This document shows positions 13,310 to 35,103 of a DNA stretch of 38,631 nucleotides, piece by piece. Position 1 is the first letter of the stretch, and every line of letters starts with the position of its first letter. The position numbers and the translations under genes were made by a program. Source of the DNA: an uncultured Gammaproteobacteria bacterium. GTDB lineage: Bacteria > Patescibacteriota > Microgenomatia > JAMCZE01. The stretch lies in NCBI GenBank assembly GCA_964360925.1, contig CAYHYP010000001.1:1-38631 (forward strand), given 5' to 3'. The notes beneath the pieces are model-generated. The model worked only from the letters and a program-made list of their open reading frames with translations, ran no database searches and was not told the DNA's origin.

Positions 13310-14151
13310 TGGAAACAAATATGAAACGGAATATTATCATCGGCATAGTTATTTTTATCTTCCTGGTCGGGGGTTTGGGTGTGGGTTTATTTTTGGTAAA
13401 TCAAAAACAGGATGTTCGCAGTAAAGCATCAACTGATATAGGAACTGCCATCATTAACCTTTCCCCCACCACGGGAAACATCACTGCCGGTAGTTCATTA
13501 CCAATCACTATATCCCTTAACCCCGCCGGAAATGTTATTTCTGCTTTTGCTATCCGGATAAATTATTCCTATTCCGGAACAATTCCCGATCTTACCGCGG
13601 AAAATTTTCAAATTAGCCCGGCGCTTACATCCGGCGGAGATTGGACTTGCCCGGTAAAAAAATTTACTGCCGCCGGTGGAAAAGCCAATATAGACATTGC
13701 TTGCGCGAATACCAGCACAACCGGATATTCCGGCAGTGGAGTCATTAATTTAGCCACAGTTTCTTTGACCGCCACTGCCTCTGCGGCCAACAACACTTAC
13801 ACTTTGGCCTTTGACCCAAAAGAAAGTATCATCACTAAAAAATCAGACAGTTTAGATATCCTTCTTACTCCTAACAGTCGTGGGACTTACACTGTTTCCG
13901 GCACGAGTATTACTCACAAGTATTCCTGCAACACTGCCGGCACTTGTGTCCAGAATGATGCCACCGGCACTTATACAAATGCTAATTGCAATAACAGCTG
14001 TACTCCTCCTCCCCCGCCACCGGTAGTACCACCTCCGGTAACACCACCACCCACCACCCTACCCGTCACCGGCAATCCTTTCTTGACTTTTGGTTTGGCA
14101 GTAGTAGGCGTTATTGTCTCTTTTTCCTCGCTTCTTTTACTCAAGCGCTAA
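13309..14151 (+). CDS. sortase-anchored cohesin-like protein (anchoring scaffold)
   Basis: Start overlaps the previous stop (alternative ATG 13321). TM/signal, cohesin-like module (GDWTCPVKKFT..LAFDPKESII), Pro-rich linker, then LPVTG + hydrophobic helix + KR. Confidence 0.7.
   Translation: METNMKRNIIIGIVIFIFLVGGLGVGLFLVNQKQDVRSKASTDIGTAIINLSPTTGNITAGSSLPITISLNPAGNVISAFAIRINYSYSGTIPDLTAENFQISPALTSGGDWTCPVKKFTAAGGKANIDIACANTSTTGYSGSGVINLATVSLTATASAANNTYTLAFDPKESIITKKSDSLDILLTPNSRGTYTVSGTSITHKYSCNTAGTCVQNDATGTYTNANCNNSCTPPPPPPVVPPPVTPPPTTLPVTGNPFLTFGLAVVGVIVSFSSLLLLKR
14059..14148 (+). other. LPXTG cell-wall sorting signal
   Basis: LPVTGNPFLTFGLAVVGVIVSFSSLLLLKR at the extreme C-terminus, preceded by PPPPPPVVPPPVTPPPTT. 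Confidence 0.75.
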
Positions 14152-14169
14152 ATGCGTTAAAATCAAGCA

Positions 14170-14850
14170 ATGTATCCGATTGTTCAAGCACCGAATGAAA
14201 TTTTGAGAACCCCGGCTGTGCCGTCTAATTTAACGCCGGAAAAACTTAAAAAAATAATTTCTGAAATGACAAAAACTCTTTTGGCGCAGAAAGATCCTGA
14301 AGGAGTGGGATTGGCGGCAAACCAAGTGGGACTTCCCTACCAAATTTTTTTGGCCCGATTTACTACTAAGAAATCCGAACCTGTCCGTGTTTTCATCAAT
14401 CCTAAAATTATTGACCATAGTGAAGAAATTCAAGAAGAAACAAAGAATTCTCCTCTTGAAGGTTGTCTCTCCGTACCAAAATATTATGGAGTAGTGAAAA
14501 GATGGAAATGGGTGAAAATGGAATACCAAGCACCACCGTCATCCTGGAGCCACGCCGTTCGTCATCCTGGAGCGAGTGAAACGAGCGATAGGATCTATCC
14601 TGGTAAAAAGATTCTATCGCCCTTCGGGCTCCAGAATGACGCTGGGGTTTCGCTCCAGCATGACGACGAAATTTTAGAAACTAGAACCGAAACTTTTGAG
14701 GGGTTTCCGGCTGTGGTTATTCAACACGAAATGGATCATTTGAATGGGAAAATTTTTGTGGAAAGAATTTTGGAACAAAACGGCCAAATGTATAAAGTAA
14801 CCGGAAAAGATAAAAAAGGCAAAGAAAAATGGGAAGAGGTAGAGCTGTAA
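14170..14850 (+). CDS. def: peptide deformylase with ~45-aa repeat-derived insertion
   Basis: All three PDF motifs are present: GLAANQVG, EGCLSVP, HEMDHLNG. The insert lies between motifs 2 and 3. Confidence 0.9.
   Translation: MYPIVQAPNEILRTPAVPSNLTPEKLKKIISEMTKTLLAQKDPEGVGLAANQVGLPYQIFLARFTTKKSEPVRVFINPKIIDHSEEIQEETKNSPLEGCLSVPKYYGVVKRWKWVKMEYQAPPSSWSHAVRHPGASETSDRIYPGKKILSPFGLQNDAGVSLQHDDEILETRTETFEGFPAVVIQHEMDHLNGKIFVERILEQNGQMYKVTGKDKKGKEKWEEVEL
14538..14665. repeat. GTCAT-hairpin repeat cluster, in frame in def
   Basis: Same unit order as 1030-1140, with an extra 5' partial unit. Translated SSWSHAVRHPGASETSDRIYPGKKILSPFGLQNDAGVSLQHD. Confidence 0.9.
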
Positions 14851-15278
14851 TTTATCATTTAACATTTATTATTTATCATTTTTATTCATGATCGCACTGT
14901 CCAAAAGTCAGGAATTAGAAAATAGAACGACAAAATTTAGTATAAATTTAGTAAATTTATGTAAGAAATTTCCAAGGGTTTTAATAACTCAGAATATTAT
15001 TGAACAACTACTTCGTTCTGGAACAAGTATTGGGGCAAATTATCGAGAAGCAAACGGAGCATCAAGTAGAAAAGACTTTCGAAATAAAATATTAATTTGT
15101 AAAAAAGAATGTAAAGAAACTGAGTATTGGTTGCAGATGTTGGCAAATGCAGCTGATGATGATTTTGTCAGTAATAGTTGTAGGATATTGTGGAAAGAAA
15201 CACATGAATTTAATCTAATATTCTCAAGTGCTGCTGCAAATACTAAATGTTAAATAAATGAAAAATAATAAATAAAAA
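14851..15278 (+). mobile_element. four-helix-bundle gene cassette bounded by AT-rich heptamer repeats / 16-of-17 inverted repeat, inserted between def and fmt
   Basis: Left arm TTTATTATTTATCATTT (14865-14881). Right arm AAATGAAAAATAATAAA (15256-15272), whose reverse complement matches at 16/17. The left flank has 7-nt periodicity (TTTATCA TTTAACA TTTATTA TTTATCA). Confidence 0.4.
14888..15253 (+). CDS. four-helix-bundle protein (23S rRNA intervening-sequence protein family, TIGR02436-like)
   Basis: GTSIGANYREANGASSRKDFRNKILICKKECKETEYWLQML is the family signature. Confidence 0.85.
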   Translation: MIALSKSQELENRTTKFSINLVNLCKKFPRVLITQNIIEQLLRSGTSIGANYREANGASSRKDFRNKILICKKECKETEYWLQMLANAADDDFVSNSCRILWKETHEFNLIFSSAAANTKC

Positions 15279-16196
15279 ATGAAAAATCAGAGGGTTGCAT
15301 TTTTTGGAACATCAAAATATTGTTTGCCGGTTTTGGAGGCTTTGAAAAACCTGCCTGCCGGCAGGCAGGAATTGGTTCTTGTAATTACCCGCGAAGATAA
15401 ACCTGTGGGGAGAAAACAAATTTTGACACCGTCTCCCGTTAAACAATGGGCAATTAAAAATGGAATTAAAGTAGATTCTAGCGGCGTAGCCGCGAGCTTG
15501 CTCATCGCCCCGCCAACGGCGGGGCTCCAGAATGACGAAAAAGTAGATTTGGCAATCGTTGCTGATTACGGAAAAATTATAAAACACGAAGTTTATGAAA
15601 AACCAAAACTGGGAACCTTTAATATCCATTTTTCAAAATTGCCGGAACTTCGTGGCCCCTCCCCAGTGCAATCAACATTGTTACGCGGTGACAAAACCGC
15701 TTGGATAACAATTTATAAACTTAAATATTATCCCGAACTGGAAATTAAAATGGATTCCGGTCCTATTTTATGGCAAAAAGAATATCCCATCCTACCCGAC
15801 GACACCACCGAATCTTTGTATACCAGATTATTCCAAGAAATCGCCAAGGAAATACCGGAAATAATAAATTCTCTAGCCGCTTGCCGCTTGCCGCTAATTT
15901 CTCAAGACCACTCCAAAGCTACTTTTTGCAAAATGCTAACTAAGGATGATGGATTTATTGAATGGGATCTTTTGAAAAACAGTATGTATGTTGCATGTTG
16001 CGATCGCAACATGATACCTACATCTCGAGTTGAAAAATTATATAACCAATATAGAGCGATGTACCCTTGGCCGGGAATATGGACTATTAAAGATGGAAGA
16101 CGAATGAAAATTTTGAAATGCCATTTGGAAAAAGAAAAAATTGTTTTGGATGAAATCCAATTTGAAGGAAAAACCCCGGAAAAATACAAAAACTAG
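15279..16196 (+). CDS. fmt: methionyl-tRNA formyltransferase with two repeat-derived insertions
   Basis: N-terminal formyltransferase fold (VAFFGTS.., ITREDKPVGRKQILTPSPVK, NIHFSKLPELRGPSPVQ). Sits next to def. Confidence 0.9.
   Translation: MKNQRVAFFGTSKYCLPVLEALKNLPAGRQELVLVITREDKPVGRKQILTPSPVKQWAIKNGIKVDSSGVAASLLIAPPTAGLQNDEKVDLAIVADYGKIIKHEVYEKPKLGTFNIHFSKLPELRGPSPVQSTLLRGDKTAWITIYKLKYYPELEIKMDSGPILWQKEYPILPDDTTESLYTRLFQEIAKEIPEIINSLAACRLPLISQDHSKATFCKMLTKDDGFIEWDLLKNSMYVACCDRNMIPTSRVEKLYNQYRAMYPWPGIWTIKDGRRMKILKCHLEKEKIVLDEIQFEGKTPEKYKN
15350..15369. repeat. perfect 20-bp palindrome CCTGCCTGCCGGCAGGCAGG, in frame in fmt (LPAGRQ)
   Basis: Identical 20-mer at 26377-26396. Imperfect copy at 19566-19585. 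Confidence 0.85.
15474..15537. repeat. GTCAT-hairpin repeat unit (reverse orientation, long form), in frame in fmt
   Basis: gattctagcggcgtagccgcgagcttgctcatcgccccgccaacggcggggctccagaatgacg. Confidence 0.85.
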
Positions 16197-16411
16197 GCAG
16201 TCAAAATGGGGCGGTAGCGAAATTGGGTTAAGCAACTGGCACAGGCGCGGACACGTTTGACGACTCCGTTTAAAACAACCTTCCCGCTGTGAAGATTAGG
16301 CAAGAAAATCTTTTGAGTTTTCGTAGCACGTTTTTCCCACTGTCCGCTATGATTATGCCGGATATTGTGTCCATATTGAACGCCTTTTTTGCAAATATCA
16401 CATTGAGTCAT
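16193..16411 (-). CDS. rpmB: 50S ribosomal protein L28
   Basis: MTQCDICKKGVQYGHNIRHNHSGQWEKRATKTQKIFLPNL is an L28-type N-terminus. Confidence 0.85.
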   Translation of the reverse strand: MTQCDICKKGVQYGHNIRHNHSGQWEKRATKTQKIFLPNLHSGKVVLNGVVKRVRACASCLTQFRYRPILTA

Positions 16412-16420
16412 AGCTTAATT

Positions 16421-17440
16421 CTACTTGAAAATGCCTTTTTTGTATAGTCCCCTGTTTATTTCTGCCACAATTTGTGGGCCCTGATAAACCATTCCCGTTA
16501 TCATTTGAATCAAATTGGCTCCGGCTTTGAATTTTTCCAACGCATCCTGAACGGTAAAAACACCCCCGCAACCAATAATGACGCAATCTTTGCCGTATTT
16601 TCCGGAAACGTATTTTATTAATTTATTGGAACCTTCAAAACAAGGTTTTCCGGAAAAATTTCCCTTTAAATTTTTGATCATTTGAACTTCCGATTTATCA
16701 AGAAATTTATTATTACGGTCTTTTACCAAATTGGAAAAAATAAATCCTGCGGCACCATATTTTAAAGAAATTTTTATCAACGGATCCAAATTTTCCGGAA
16801 GGATTTCATTGGGCATTTTTACATAGATGGGTTTATTTACTTTTATTTTCTTAACCAATAATTCCAGGTTTTTGGGGAGGGTAAAATTTTCCGGCATGGC
16901 CGTATTTGGGCAACTGATATTTAACTCAAAATATTTGACGTAGTCTTTGTTTTTTAAATATTCAAAAGTATAAAGATAATCATCAATCGCCCGGTTAATA
17001 GAATTTATCTCCGGTAAATTAGATGCTCCGATACTTATCCCTAAAACAATATTTTTAAGATTTTTTTGGGAAAGACGCTCGTCAACTTTTATCACTCCTT
17101 CGGATTTAAAGCCCTTGTTTACCAATAAAGATTGAGAATTTGGCAAACGACCCAAACGGGGCTTGGGATTCCCCTCATAGGCTTTTGCTGTAACCGTACC
17201 AACAGTATTAAACCCAAACCCAATCTTATGCATTACTTGGGCCAAATGACCGTTATAGTCAAAACCTGCCGCCAAACCAACAGGGTTCGGAAATTTCATT
17301 TCCCCAAAAATTTTTTCTAAAGGAAAATTTTCCAGAGACTCACCTATTACGCTTATAAAGTTATGAACTAATTCCGCGTCAAACTTAAACAAAACGGGTT
17401 TAATAATTTTTTGGTAAATCATATGATATGATCTTATCAT
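16421..17440 (-). CDS. pyrD: dihydroorotate dehydrogenase (class 2-like)
   Basis: NPVGLAAGFDYNG..GFGFNTVGTVT..GNPKPRLGRL. A biologically likelier start is ATG 17422 (MIYQKIIKPVLFKFDAE). Confidence 0.9.
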   Translation of the reverse strand: MIRSYHMIYQKIIKPVLFKFDAELVHNFISVIGESLENFPLEKIFGEMKFPNPVGLAAGFDYNGHLAQVMHKIGFGFNTVGTVTAKAYEGNPKPRLGRLPNSQSLLVNKGFKSEGVIKVDERLSQKNLKNIVLGISIGASNLPEINSINRAIDDYLYTFEYLKNKDYVKYFELNISCPNTAMPENFTLPKNLELLVKKIKVNKPIYVKMPNEILPENLDPLIKISLKYGAAGFIFSNLVKDRNNKFLDKSEVQMIKNLKGNFSGKPCFEGSNKLIKYVSGKYGKDCVIIGCGGVFTVQDALEKFKAGANLIQMITGMVYQGPQIVAEINRGLYKKGIFK

Positions 17441-19200: not shown

Positions 19201-20232
19201 TTATTTCTCATTGTTAAAAAAATTCAAAGTATCTTTAACTGCCTCGTTCCATTTTGGAACCATATTGTGATCTGCCCCCACGTACTCTTTATAAACTAAT
19301 TTGAAATTTAAAATTTGAAATTTGAAATTAAAGTCGCGATTCCAACGAACCGGAACCCATTCGTCAGCTTCTCCCTGTTGAATAAATATTGGCGCTTTTA
19401 TACTGTCTAAATATTTATCAAACGAATATTTATTGACGTCATAATCTTTTTCAAAATCAGCGGTGGCTTTTCTTAACCACAAACCTTCATCTTTATAACC
19501 GTCGGTATAATATAAAATGTTATATGGAAAAGATTTGGTCACCGGATTCCATAAAACCGTAGGAACCTGCCTACCGGCAGGCAAGATGGTTAATATTGTC
19601 AGAGCAATTTGCCCGCCATTGGAATGACCCCATAACATTAATTTACAACTGTCATCCTGACGAAGGTCAGGATCTCTCAACTTGTTTGAGTTAACACTCG
19701 CATTCGCGAGAGATGCTGAAACAAGTTCAGCATGACAGATTGAAGCTATTAAATCCATATTCGTGGTATACGTCAAAAATCTATTTTCAAAATCATCCCG
19801 ATGGCCATCGGGATCAGATTCCCCATATCCCAAAAAATCGGGGGCAAAAGTGACATAACCGTTTTTTGCCAGAACCTCGGCAACTTTTTGGGTTCCAAAA
19901 CCGGGAAAATATTCTCCCTCGTCTGCCGAACCATGAAGCAATAAAATTGCCGGTTTAACAGTGGCACTTTGGGTAGCTCCGTTTATTATTCCGGAAATTT
20001 TTTTGCCGTCGGAAGAATAATAAAATTTGTTGCCGGAAAAAGTAATCTCCGAAGGGATCCCTCCCCGTTTGCGTAAATTCTCTATCGTATATTTGTCCAG
20101 GGGTTTTTCAAAAAAGGGTTTGATTAAAGGAGAAGCCGGATATCTTTCTTTGAAATTTCCAAGCAAAAATATAACACTTACAATTATAATCGTAATTAAT
20201 AAAATTAAAAATCCAACCAGCCACTTTTTCAT
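19201..20232 (-). CDS. membrane-anchored alpha/beta hydrolase (S9/dienelactone-hydrolase-like) with repeat insertions
   Basis: N-terminal TM helix. Nucleophile elbow GHSNGG. Late GADH. Repeat inserts at 19566-19585 and 19651-19736. Confidence 0.7.
   Translation of the reverse strand: MKKWLVGFLILLITIIIVSVIFLLGNFKERYPASPLIKPFFEKPLDKYTIENLRKRGGIPSEITFSGNKFYYSSDGKKISGIINGATQSATVKPAILLLHGSADEGEYFPGFGTQKVAEVLAKNGYVTFAPDFLGYGESDPDGHRDDFENRFLTYTTNMDLIASICHAELVSASLANASVNSNKLRDPDLRQDDSCKLMLWGHSNGGQIALTILTILPAGRQVPTVLWNPVTKSFPYNILYYTDGYKDEGLWLRKATADFEKDYDVNKYSFDKYLDSIKAPIFIQQGEADEWVPVRWNRDFNFKFQILNFKLVYKEYVGADHNMVPKWNEAVKDTLNFFNNEK
19566..19585. repeat. imperfect copy of the CCTGCC..GGCAGG palindrome, inside the hydrolase gene
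   Basis: cctgcctaccggcaggcaag. Translated LPAGRQ on the minus strand. Confidence 0.7.
19651..19736. repeat. 86-nt composite triple-hairpin element, copy A (inside the hydrolase gene)
   Basis: gtcatcctgacgaaggtcaggatc-tctcaacttgtttgag..ctcgcattcgcgagaga-tgctgaaacaagttcagcatgac. Confidence 0.9.
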
Positions 20233-28949: not shown

Positions 28950-29612
28950 TTAAGTGAAAAACCAATTATGATAATAATCATCCCCTTCAAATCGTTCACT
29001 AACCAAATAAGTGACTTCTTTGCTCACATTAAATACCTGACGAATAAACTCCACCTCGTTTTCGCATGGATGAGGAAAAATTAAAACACTTTCGTTTAAA
29101 GAAATAAAACCAATTTCCTTTAATTTTCCCCGCAGCCGATCCCGCAATCTTCTTTTGGTTTCCGCCACATCAAAAATAACCAGTCTCCACTTGCTATCCC
29201 ACTTGTCCGGTTTTTTAATTTTCATCTCTTCAAATTTATATTCCAAAGCTTTTTTATGTCCGTCCTGTGTAATTTCCACTTTTGTCTCACCATTTTCATA
29301 GGTTATTTTCACCAACTTGCGTCTTTTGAGTCGCTCCAATCTTTGGTTAAATTTAGTTCTTTCCCGCCATTTGAGTTCTTTTCCCACAACGGCTGCCAAA
29401 CCGGGAGCAATAACCGCCAAACTAATGGCACCACCAACCGCCAAAATCATCAAAAGATCCTTCGTCAATGGATATTTTTCAATCCCCTTTTTGAGCTTTT
29501 TCTCCCAACTTTCTTTTTCCGGAGCAAAAATTTTTGCCGCCATTTCCCAATTTATCCCGCTTGTCCCGACCGAGTCGGGAACCAAATCGGAGTCTACCCT
29601 ATTATTTGTCAT
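28950..29612 (-). CDS. PaaX-like / Cas2-fold domain protein with a TM helix (putative regulator)
   Basis: C-terminal KWDSKWRLVIFDVAETKRRLRDRLRGKLKEIGFISLNESVLIFPHP matches the PaaX_C/Cas2-like pattern (WDgkW..v.fDiPe..r..Rd.lr..L...GF..l..SV...P). Confidence 0.5.
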   Translation of the reverse strand: MTNNRVDSDLVPDSVGTSGINWEMAAKIFAPEKESWEKKLKKGIEKYPLTKDLLMILAVGGAISLAVIAPGLAAVVGKELKWRERTKFNQRLERLKRRKLVKITYENGETKVEITQDGHKKALEYKFEEMKIKKPDKWDSKWRLVIFDVAETKRRLRDRLRGKLKEIGFISLNESVLIFPHPCENEVEFIRQVFNVSKEVTYLVSERFEGDDYYHNWFFT

Positions 29613-32816: not shown

Positions 32817-32866
32817 CCAATCTTCCAATATCCAATTTTTCAATTTCCAATAACCAATGACCAATT
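32817..32866. repeat. CCAAT-type heptamer tandem tract (flank of four-helix-bundle gene)
   Basis: CCAATCT TCCAATA TCCAATT TTTCAAT TTCCAAT AACCAAT GACCAAT. Confidence 0.7.
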
Positions 32867-33222
32867 TATTTTGAGGATTTTATTAGGATAGAACTAACGA
32901 TTGCTTCAATTTCCTGGCCCTCTTTTATTAACGGCTCCATACGTTTTGAATAACCTGGATTCGTAGCAGAAATCATTTTTAACCAATAATTTGTCTCCTT
33001 TGTTTCTTTTTTAACAACCGTAAAACTATTCACAAACTGTTTTTTACTAGTAGACCCGTCTGCTTCTTGACCATTTGCTCCCATGGAAGTTGCTGATCTG
33101 GAGATTTGGTTAACAAAACCTAAATTTTGAACAGTCTTTGGAAGAACTTTTGTTAAATTTACTACACGTACAACAAAATCAAATATTCTATTGTGAATGT
33201 CAAAATCAGCCATATATTTCAA
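32866..33222 (-). CDS. four-helix-bundle protein (23S rRNA IVS protein family)
   Basis: SATSMGANGQEADGSTSKKQFVNSFTVVKKETKETNYWLKMI. The track start 33222 is TTG; ATG 33213 (MADFDIHNRIFDF) is likelier. Confidence 0.85.
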   Translation of the reverse strand: MKYMADFDIHNRIFDFVVRVVNLTKVLPKTVQNLGFVNQISRSATSMGANGQEADGSTSKKQFVNSFTVVKKETKETNYWLKMISATNPGYSKRMEPLIKEGQEIEAIVSSILIKSSK

Positions 33223-33368
33223 TCAATCCAATCATCCAATTCCCAATTATTCAATATCCAATCAACCAATTTCCAATATTTCAATTGGTCATTGAGAATT
33301 GGATATTGATTAGTATTGGCTATTGGTCATTGGTTTTATTGATGTTGGTCATTAGTTGATTGATTTTG
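33223..33368. repeat. CCAAT heptamer tract switching to inverted ATTGG/TTGGTCA heptamers (long imperfect palindrome)
   Basis: CCAAT-phase repeats run to ~33284, then ATTGGTCATTGAGAATTGGATATTGATTAGTATTGGCTATTGGTCATTGG.... Overlaps the last ~10 codons of galT. Confidence 0.7.
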
Positions 33369-34704: not shown

Positions 34705-35103
34705 CTATTCCTGCGTTTGGCTAAATTTTTCCCACGACCTTGCCAGGTGCATCACTTTCCAGCGGCAAGTTGAAAGAGAATTTATTTGCTCCTCAAAAAA
34801 TTCCAACTCTATATCTTTATTCTCTATATCTCTATATTGATCCAGATATACTATTAATATATTAATCCCTAACATCACATCTTCCAAAATCTCAATGGCT
34901 CTTTTTTTGTCTGAAAACCTGACACTGTGCGCCCTGGCAATTTTAACGGGCAGTTCCAATGCAATTGCCCGTAAAGACGCACAATTGTGCGTCTCTACAA
35001 TACGTTTCGCCACGGCAACAGAAACTGCCAATAATTTTTGGTAAACCTCCAAATCCTGGAAACTTTTGATCGGCCGCCTGGGTGAAAATTTTTGATATGA
35101 CAT
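34705..35103 (-). CDS. divergent four-helix-bundle-like protein
   Basis: N-terminal FQDLEVYQKLLAVSVAVAKRI resembles the family's f.dL.vwqka helix 1. The rest is diverged. Confidence 0.5.
   Translation of the reverse strand: MSYQKFSPRRPIKSFQDLEVYQKLLAVSVAVAKRIVETHNCASLRAIALELPVKIARAHSVRFSDKKRAIEILEDVMLGINILIVYLDQYRDIENKDIELEFFEEQINSLSTCRWKVMHLARSWEKFSQTQE

Follow-up and report, generated by a model that had tools for sequence, protein, structure and literature searches.

Background

PF05635 is a large orphan protein family. Among its members is Avd, a small, basic, pentameric four-helix-bundle protein that is an accessory of diversity-generating retroelements and is tied to nucleic-acid handling. 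The cyanobacterial STRR sequences are heptanucleotide tandem repeats, and for heptamer repeats in bacteria generally we know of no accepted explanation.

The described system closest to the locus reported here is the open reading frame (ORF)-bearing intervening sequence (IVS) of 23S rRNA. As set out in the passages of PMC4990558 drawn on here, the Coxiella IVS is 428 nt long, is located in helix 45, and has terminal inverted repeats that form a 28-bp stem cut by RNase III; tandem GACAGAT heptamers (three copies, in numbers that vary between strains) precede the start of its S23p ORF, which is described as decaying and probably untranslated, and further IVS are cited for Leptospira, Xanthomonas and Brucella. 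Heptamer arrays of another kind appear in passages of PMC4679880, which place arrays of TAACTGA in Beggiatoaceae, cyanobacteria and Bacteroidetes; they are short (2-6 heptamers), intergenic, often adjacent to a start codon in the position of the ribosome binding site, and patchily distributed across phyla.

ORF-bearing rRNA intervening sequences are already known; here the same kind of cassette is found in a protein-coding operon. A literature search, in which subscription journals were largely uncovered, found no description of PF05635 genes with heptamer arms outside rRNA, nor one that treats heptamer arms as a trait of the whole family. The architecture of the rRNA inserts, arms included, recurs at stop-start junctions of essential operons, the arms apparently being kept on changing place, and this recurrence of arms and gene together ties the PF05635 family, heptamer repeats and rRNA inserts to one another.

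Results

The def-fmt locus

The window, by which we mean the whole analysed stretch of 38,631 bp, is one complete contig of a 722-kb genome (108 contigs, 38% G+C, 93.3% complete). Head to tail on its plus strand lie def, a 366-nt ORF (stop codon included) encoding 121 residues, and fmt, and profile matches bear out the coordinates and identities that the first-pass annotation had given to these three genes (Table 1). The matches to def fall in two stretches. The ORF between the two genes has a G+C content of 30%, against 38% for the genome; its product has a pI of 9.06 and belongs to the family by its scores against both PF05635 (61 bits, cut-off 33.8) and TIGR02436 (74.8 bits, cut-off 24). 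By sequence the closest solved structure is PDB 2rld (1.5e-16, residues 8-88), deposited with five chains, and this sequence match is what points to a four-helix-bundle fold. A promoter and terminator scan of positions 14100-16300 gave nothing above background (9 promoter-like sites versus 5.4 +/- 2.3), and PADLOC (defence) and PHROGs (phage) returned no match for the three four-helix-bundle ORFs of the window. A DHODH gene (16421-17440) lies directly downstream of fmt on the opposite strand.

Table 1. Position and supporting evidence of features in the 38,631-bp window
Feature	Position	Strand	Evidence and remarks
def, peptide deformylase	14170-14850	+	PF01327 1e-39, TIGR00079 1.3e-37
Dispersed-repeat insert in def	about 14530-14670	+	motif at 14537, 14560, 14631, 14655
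5' arm, ~4.6 degenerate heptamers	14848-14887	+	TRF; aligns with G009 and G012 5' arms, resembles G003 arm
Four-helix-bundle protein gene	14888-15253	+	PF05635 1.4e-16, TIGR02436 5.8e-21
3' arm, reverse complement of 5' arm heptamers	15254-15278	+	TRF; 16/17 inverted repeat; 23-bp stem (predicted)
fmt, methionyl-tRNA formyltransferase	15279-16196	+	PF00551 4.7e-26, PF02911, TIGR00460 7.1e-51
Dispersed-repeat insert in fmt	about 15470-15540	+	in frame; motif at 15527
Second cassette, ORF 32866-33222 (118 aa)	32817-33335	-	PF05635 1.1e-16, TIGR02436 1.8e-20
Divergent four-helix-bundle ORF, 132 aa, no heptamer arms	34705-35103	-	Atlas TM 0.87-0.90

The flanks of the ORF measure 37 nt (14851-14887) and 25 nt (15254-15278), as first annotated; they had also been called AT-only, and here the description needs to be relaxed to AT-rich, the left flank containing four C and the right flank one G. 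Both consist of degenerate heptamers. Those of the 5' arm read ATTTATC, ATTTAAC, ATTTATT, ATTTATC and ATTTTTA, and extend to the start codon of the four-helix-bundle ORF; def takes its TAA stop codon, a new one, from the first three bases of the arm. The 7-nt periodicity noticed in the left flank is real: TRF delimits an array at 14850-14881 (period 7, 4.6 copies, 84% matches, consensus ATTTATC) and a second one on the right at 15251-15287 (period 7, 5.1 copies), where the 3' arm terminates at the fmt ATG. The inverted repeat is exactly as claimed, positions 14865-14881 reading TTTATTATTTATCATTT and positions 15256-15272 its reverse complement with a single mismatch, and with this 16/17 match the order of variant units is mirrored between the two arms. 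The insert is thus a self-contained cassette, a PF05635 gene between inverted arms of about five degenerate heptamers each.

Both the MFE and the centroid structure predict a 23-bp terminal stem, nearly all A-U, in which 14855-14881 pairs with 15256-15282; the predicted stem encloses the ORF, and the fmt AUG falls inside its outermost helix. Taken as a whole, the region has an unremarkable fold (z = -1.53), matched by 8 of 100 shuffles.

Insertion at the def-fmt junction

Among 29 relatives' loci around fmt, whose def-fmt spacing the first-pass annotation had proposed to compare in search of an empty site, the two genes abut directly in 14 and stand 224 nt to about 1.1 kb apart in 6; the other 9 have no def within the stretch, 4 of them being cut by the end of a contig. 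The empty site is found in G010 and G015, both of the same family as this genome, where the stop codon of def runs into the start codon of fmt in the shared sequence ATGA, and it is this overlap that identifies the cassette as an insertion: by sequence comparison, the ~430 nt at 14848-15278 are inserted into an ancestral def/fmt stop-start overlap. For annotation, such an insertion explains the def/fmt split in this lineage; inserts of this kind may also alter the processing of operon RNA and translational coupling.

Conservation of the gene at this position across distant relatives had been named as an observation that would speak against a cassette, and in part it was observed. G003, a genome from another genus, carries an orthologous cassette at its own def-fmt junction, with 74% amino acid identity and a similar 5' arm (ATTTAAC ATTTTTC ATTTATC), in a locus that spans two overlapping contigs. 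The four-helix-bundle protein is thus better conserved between the two genera, at 74%, than def (66%) or fmt (59%), and on this comparison it looks selected. An fmt tree of 18 rows, in which 1 of 15 inner branches is starred, gives no resolution within the family and does not settle the sisterhood of G000 and G003, so that a single old insertion is indistinguishable from two at this junction. The G003 orthologue (L020, L070, L080; contigs C11 and C115) contains an in-frame insert of a GC-rich repeat, ~30 residues after its first helix, and it is at this insert that the assembly breaks into the two contigs.

The same subfamily occurs elsewhere in three further genomes, with 52-55% amino acid identity and heptamer arms that share the ATTT core. 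In G009 it is flanked by a Peptidase_S74 and a GalT-like gene, in G012 by two T2SSE ATPase genes, and in G014 by a Fic and a DNA-ligase gene. Similarity between the G009 and G012 loci is bounded by the outer arm ends, and the arms in the window align with them through the common ATTT core. These sequences support the gene and its inverted arms behaving as a single unit found in different places. Mobility is inferred here from comparison, and the survey of junctions and copies yielded no recent copies, recognisable transposase or target-site duplication. The suggestion that these genes travel as repeat-bounded cassettes is supported in part, by the empty sites and the differing contexts; the description of them as selfish, with whatever mode of movement that implies, is not. 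Across the 41 genomes searched, the number of family genes per genome ranges from 0 to 16, and 29 genomes have at least one. Copies within the genome under study share 37-40% identity and each has its own arm sequence; they are, on this divergence, old paralogues, and hence their arms are not the common terminal repeats of an active transposon. Recent activity is disfavoured by this divergence, by the failure to recognise a transposase or target duplication, and by an fmt tree that does not settle the placement of G003.

A contig from another study (run X5) represents a second strain, with arms identical to those in the window and four changes in the 366 nt of the gene; the 5' part of fmt is far more diverged. 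One of the four changes, at window position 15192 in this one contig, turns TGG into TAG at codon 102, and the other three are synonymous. Since the sole non-synonymous change is a stop codon, the four-helix-bundle protein may be dispensable in the X5 strain. Contigs of four DNA runs contained no empty-site allele and no arm-length variant at the cassette. One candidate joint, from 14741 to 15558 (side 21), came from runs X6 and X10 but was not accepted: its ends lie near dispersed-repeat copies and its anchor is shorter than 30 letters.

What occupies the def-fmt junction differs between genera of the family (L012, L014, L017, L021, L023, L081-L084). In G008, G004 and G002 the ORFs after def are, by eye, glycosyltransferase-like; G001 has a dihydroorotate-dehydrogenase-like ORF between its def and fmt genes, and elsewhere a 205-aa ORF is present.

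Flank complementarity across the family

The significance of the flank match against an AT-rich background, which the first-pass annotation had left as a question, depends on the control. Shuffles of just the 37-nt and 25-nt flanks equal or exceed the real local-alignment score 42 times in 2000, and taken alone the match is suggestive, of modest significance. It stands out far more strongly in genome-wide and family-wide comparisons. For 642 ORFs of the genome we scored how well the upstream 80 nt match the reverse-complemented downstream 80 nt; the def-fmt cassette gene ranks 3rd with a score of 39 (median 14, 95th percentile 21). Of the nine PF05635-type ORFs in the genome, seven are in the top 25 (hypergeometric 2e-9), and the two outside it, on contigs C44 and C51, are of a longer form of about 180-190 aa. 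The remaining high scorers have a different repeat on their flanks, a GC-rich palindrome dispersed through the genome.

Folding gave a similar ranking. Among 201 small ORFs folded with 60-nt flanks (6 family genes and 195 controls), the def-fmt cassette leads with 42 arm-to-arm pairs in its MFE structure (rank 1 of 201), and ranks 1-3 are all family genes; 96 of the 195 controls have no such pairs and 3 have at least 30. One of the six cassettes of the genome in this test, C1:32866, lacks arm-to-arm pairs in its MFE structure, and its long upstream region folds back on itself.

The annotation had also proposed to collect the family genes of the genome and align their flanks; we compared flanks more widely, in a set of 99 genes from the genome and 40 relatives. 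The set comprises 6 genes of the genome itself, 34 of relatives' loci and 59 of the 60 ORFs from 60 further stretches, some of which yielded two ORFs and some none (one ORF was left out for N). A family profile built from five sequences missed divergent members, which a wider profile recovered. Arms belonging to the same gene have a median score of 29, versus 15 for arms mismatched across genes, and in 57 of the 99 genes the gene's own arms score above the 95th percentile of mismatched pairs; the complementarity is therefore specific to each copy, the heptamer sequence itself varying between copies. The median length of the arm alignment is 34 nt, or about five heptamers. Measured against 54 neighbouring control ORFs, 22 of the 34 relatives' genes lie above the 95th percentile.

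Discussion

Comparison with described elements

Judged by sequence, the cassette matches ORF-bearing 23S rRNA IVS in build, here within a protein-coding operon. In size it is close to the Coxiella burnetii IVS as given in the excerpts of that paper (~430 nt versus 428 nt); in both, a PF05635-type ORF occupies the loop of a stem of terminal inverted repeats, which in our case is predicted by folding, tandem heptamers stand right before the start codon, and the Shine-Dalgarno sequence is poor or absent; this host, too, encodes RNase III. The differences are that the insert lies between two protein-coding genes instead of in an rRNA helix, that heptamer arrays are present on both sides of the ORF, and that cleavage here would be by analogy. 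Moreover, the ORF is intact and conserved between genera, unlike the decaying S23p ORF of those excerpts.

Two other kinds of element invite comparison. Solo arrays in this genome, described below, are comparable to the TAACTGA-type heptanucleotide arrays; at the cassette, by contrast, the arrays form inverted pairs around a four-helix-bundle gene, and no such gene is mentioned in the passages of PMC4679880 used here. Integron gene cassettes, REP/RAYT elements and MITEs are likewise small, lie between genes, have no mobility enzyme of their own and bear imperfect inverted repeats capable of forming hairpins. Unlike these, the PF05635 cassettes have no recombination site or end sequence common to the copies, do not form arrays at an integrase-linked platform, and have arms of heptamers specific to each gene lineage.

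A proposed stem in the operon RNA

Our preferred explanation, towards which we lean with some reservation, is an IVS-like inserted cassette whose arms pair and are processed by RNase III. The cassette would be transcribed together with def and fmt, and its arms would then base-pair, closing the ORF off in a stem of ~23 bp in which the fmt start codon would be covered; host RNase III, for which the genome has a gene (C20:2986-3378, 2.7e-41), would then cut this stem as in rRNA intervening sequences. Cutting would either take the insert out of the operon RNA or insulate it within that RNA, and such removal or insulation would explain how inserts are tolerated at tight junctions; operon junctions and rRNA helices would both be tolerable landing places if the arms were paired and cut. 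The encoded protein would be a conserved, basic, probably pentameric bundle, with the heptamer arrays as its likeliest ligand.

A stem under selection in the sense-strand RNA should show more G-U than A-C mismatches. Clear arms are present in 65 of the 99 cassettes, and in these we counted 106 G-U versus 85 A-C on the sense strand (binomial p 0.15), and in an earlier, smaller set (26 of 40 cassettes) 39 versus 28 (p 0.22). No signature of selection at the RNA level is seen in these counts, which counts against the sense-strand stem.

Alternative explanations

The arms may instead be, in the main, an array of binding sites for the protein encoded between them and only secondarily an RNA stem, the whole being a self-regulating module of a protein and its own sites. 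A pentamer would read about five heptamers, one per subunit, in DNA or RNA, and solo arrays would be its further targets or its products. We consider this possible, though rather unlikely. The basic protein (pI 9.06), the five deposited chains of its homologue 2rld, and the median arm alignment of 34 nt, about five units, all fit such a reading, as does the lack of a sense-strand G-U bias, which is expected if RNA pairing is not selected. The genome also contains 24 gene-less AATTTAC arrays of 23-47 nt, most of them 35-40 nt, TRF copy numbers of solo arrays are mostly 4.3-5.6, and solo arrays occur in both orientations relative to adjoining genes. When 39 solo arrays of period 7 or 8 were compared with arms of resident cassettes, the best match was to the arms on C18 for 20, to octamer arms on C48 for 6 and to C85 for 1; yet the match to resident arms (0.93-0.94) equals the maximum of a null of 30 shuffled consensus units in this AT-rich genome (0.93-0.94), so the link to resident arms is descriptive only. 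Of the 29 relatives with a PF05635 gene, 18 have AATTTAC arrays, versus 1 of the 12 without one (Fisher p 0.002, for genomes that are related and not independent), and with protein and arms inherited together any correlation between protein and heptamer is confounded by descent. Against a reader of independent arrays stand also the mirrored order of the variant units (16/17), for which such arrays have no need, and the lack, in TRF results for this genome, of solo arrays of the cassette's own ATTTATC unit. Pairing of the arms in RNA and their recognition by the protein are not mutually exclusive.

A wider form of the binding-site proposal, more speculative and in our judgement unlikely, is that PF05635 proteins outside retroelements are in general sequence-specific readers of heptamer arrays: a pentameric ring would bind five 7-nt units, the inverted arms would be the cognate sites of each lineage, solo arrays would be targets in trans or offspring, and the 23S rRNA IVS would be a special landing place of a general mobile module. 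Were it true, the heptanucleotide repeats of cyanobacteria and of giant sulfur bacteria would be among its trans targets or offspring. The question can now be tested with one small protein and a 35-nt oligonucleotide.

The remaining explanations fare worse. A classical transposon or MITE, with terminal inverted repeats acted on by a transposase in trans, would account for the inverted ends and for the different contexts in different genera, and an ORF at C58:3397-4062 does look, by eye, like an IS200/RAYT-type enzyme. However, each copy in the genome has arms of its own, the divergence between copies is that of old paralogues, no target-site duplication was seen at the junctions, and mismatched arm pairs score at background level (median 15 versus 29 for own pairs), which leaves no common end sequence for a single enzyme to recognise; the cassettes show neither the shared terminal inverted repeats nor the target-site duplications of such elements, and we regard this origin as improbable. 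Still less probable, and already disfavoured, is an ordinary resident gene whose flanks are similar by chance in AT-rich spacers. The 42 of 2000 shuffles and the presence of the same gene at the same junction in G003 would suit it, against which must be set the genome-wide rank of 3/642, the same layout with copy-specific complementarity around 57 of 99 family genes, the empty ATGA junctions of G010 and G015, and the coincidence of unit boundaries with arm ends in G009 and G012. An Avd gene of a diversity-generating retroelement would be suggested by the protein, a small, basic four-helix bundle of a related family, by the three occurrences of PF05635 in the portion of a review of such elements consulted (PMC10053308), and by the Atlas, which lists a bAvd-bearing cluster for the third ORF of the window, 34705-35103 (13% of members). 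The neighbours here are instead def and fmt, with heptamer arms in place of a template/variable repeat pair. A search of the 93%-complete genome for a reverse transcriptase (PF00078) gave none, which excludes a retroelement role in this case; we find this reading barely credible.

Other copies and repeats in the genome

The first-pass annotation counted two other copies of the gene in the window. One, ORF 32866-33222, is supported by profile matches and is part of a second cassette, with an ATTGG-type array downstream and CCAAT/ATTGG arrays upstream (TRF arrays 32817-32865 and 33220-33368). What was probably meant as the other, ORF 34705-35103, is a copy by structure comparison only: its Atlas model superposes on four-helix-bundle clusters, one of which is PF05635, no Pfam or NCBIfam match was obtained even at E up to 5-10, and it is flanked by a GC-rich palindromic repeat in place of heptamers. 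It may represent a divergent, phage-associated branch of the four-helix-bundle fold.

A longer form of the family, of 182-188 aa, is encoded at C27:3083-3631, C51:3415-3963 and C44:4530-5096. The ORF on C27 includes a TIGR04258 ('four helix bundle suffix') domain (the scan covered C27 only) and has repeat-bearing flanks, some of the repeats being direct instead of inverted; the flanks of the C44 and C51 ORFs are without repeats. A 220-aa ORF at 28950-29612 on the minus strand has CATAAAGCGGCCGCTTG-type sequence on both sides and a flank-complementarity score of 36 (rank 6/642).

Gene-less arrays of about five heptamers (AAATTTT, AATTTGA, AATTTAC) lie in the window at 483-514 and 19298-19329 and at ~24 sites on other contigs, for example C10:12264-12298, C33:678-714 and C44:1123-1163. 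Many of the solo arrays fill stop-start junctions and directly abut an ATG; the two in the window are within long ORFs.

Palindromic elements inside genes are tolerated in Rickettsia, and the dispersed GC-rich palindromic repeat of this genome, with a core like CCAGAATGACG and its complement, resembles these. It occurs in frame within both def and fmt (Table 1), lengthening def by about 40 residues. Its motif has 222 occurrences in the genome versus about 5 expected, 91 of them inside ORFs of at least 200 aa, and contig depth in metagenome runs piles up on stretches of the repeat.
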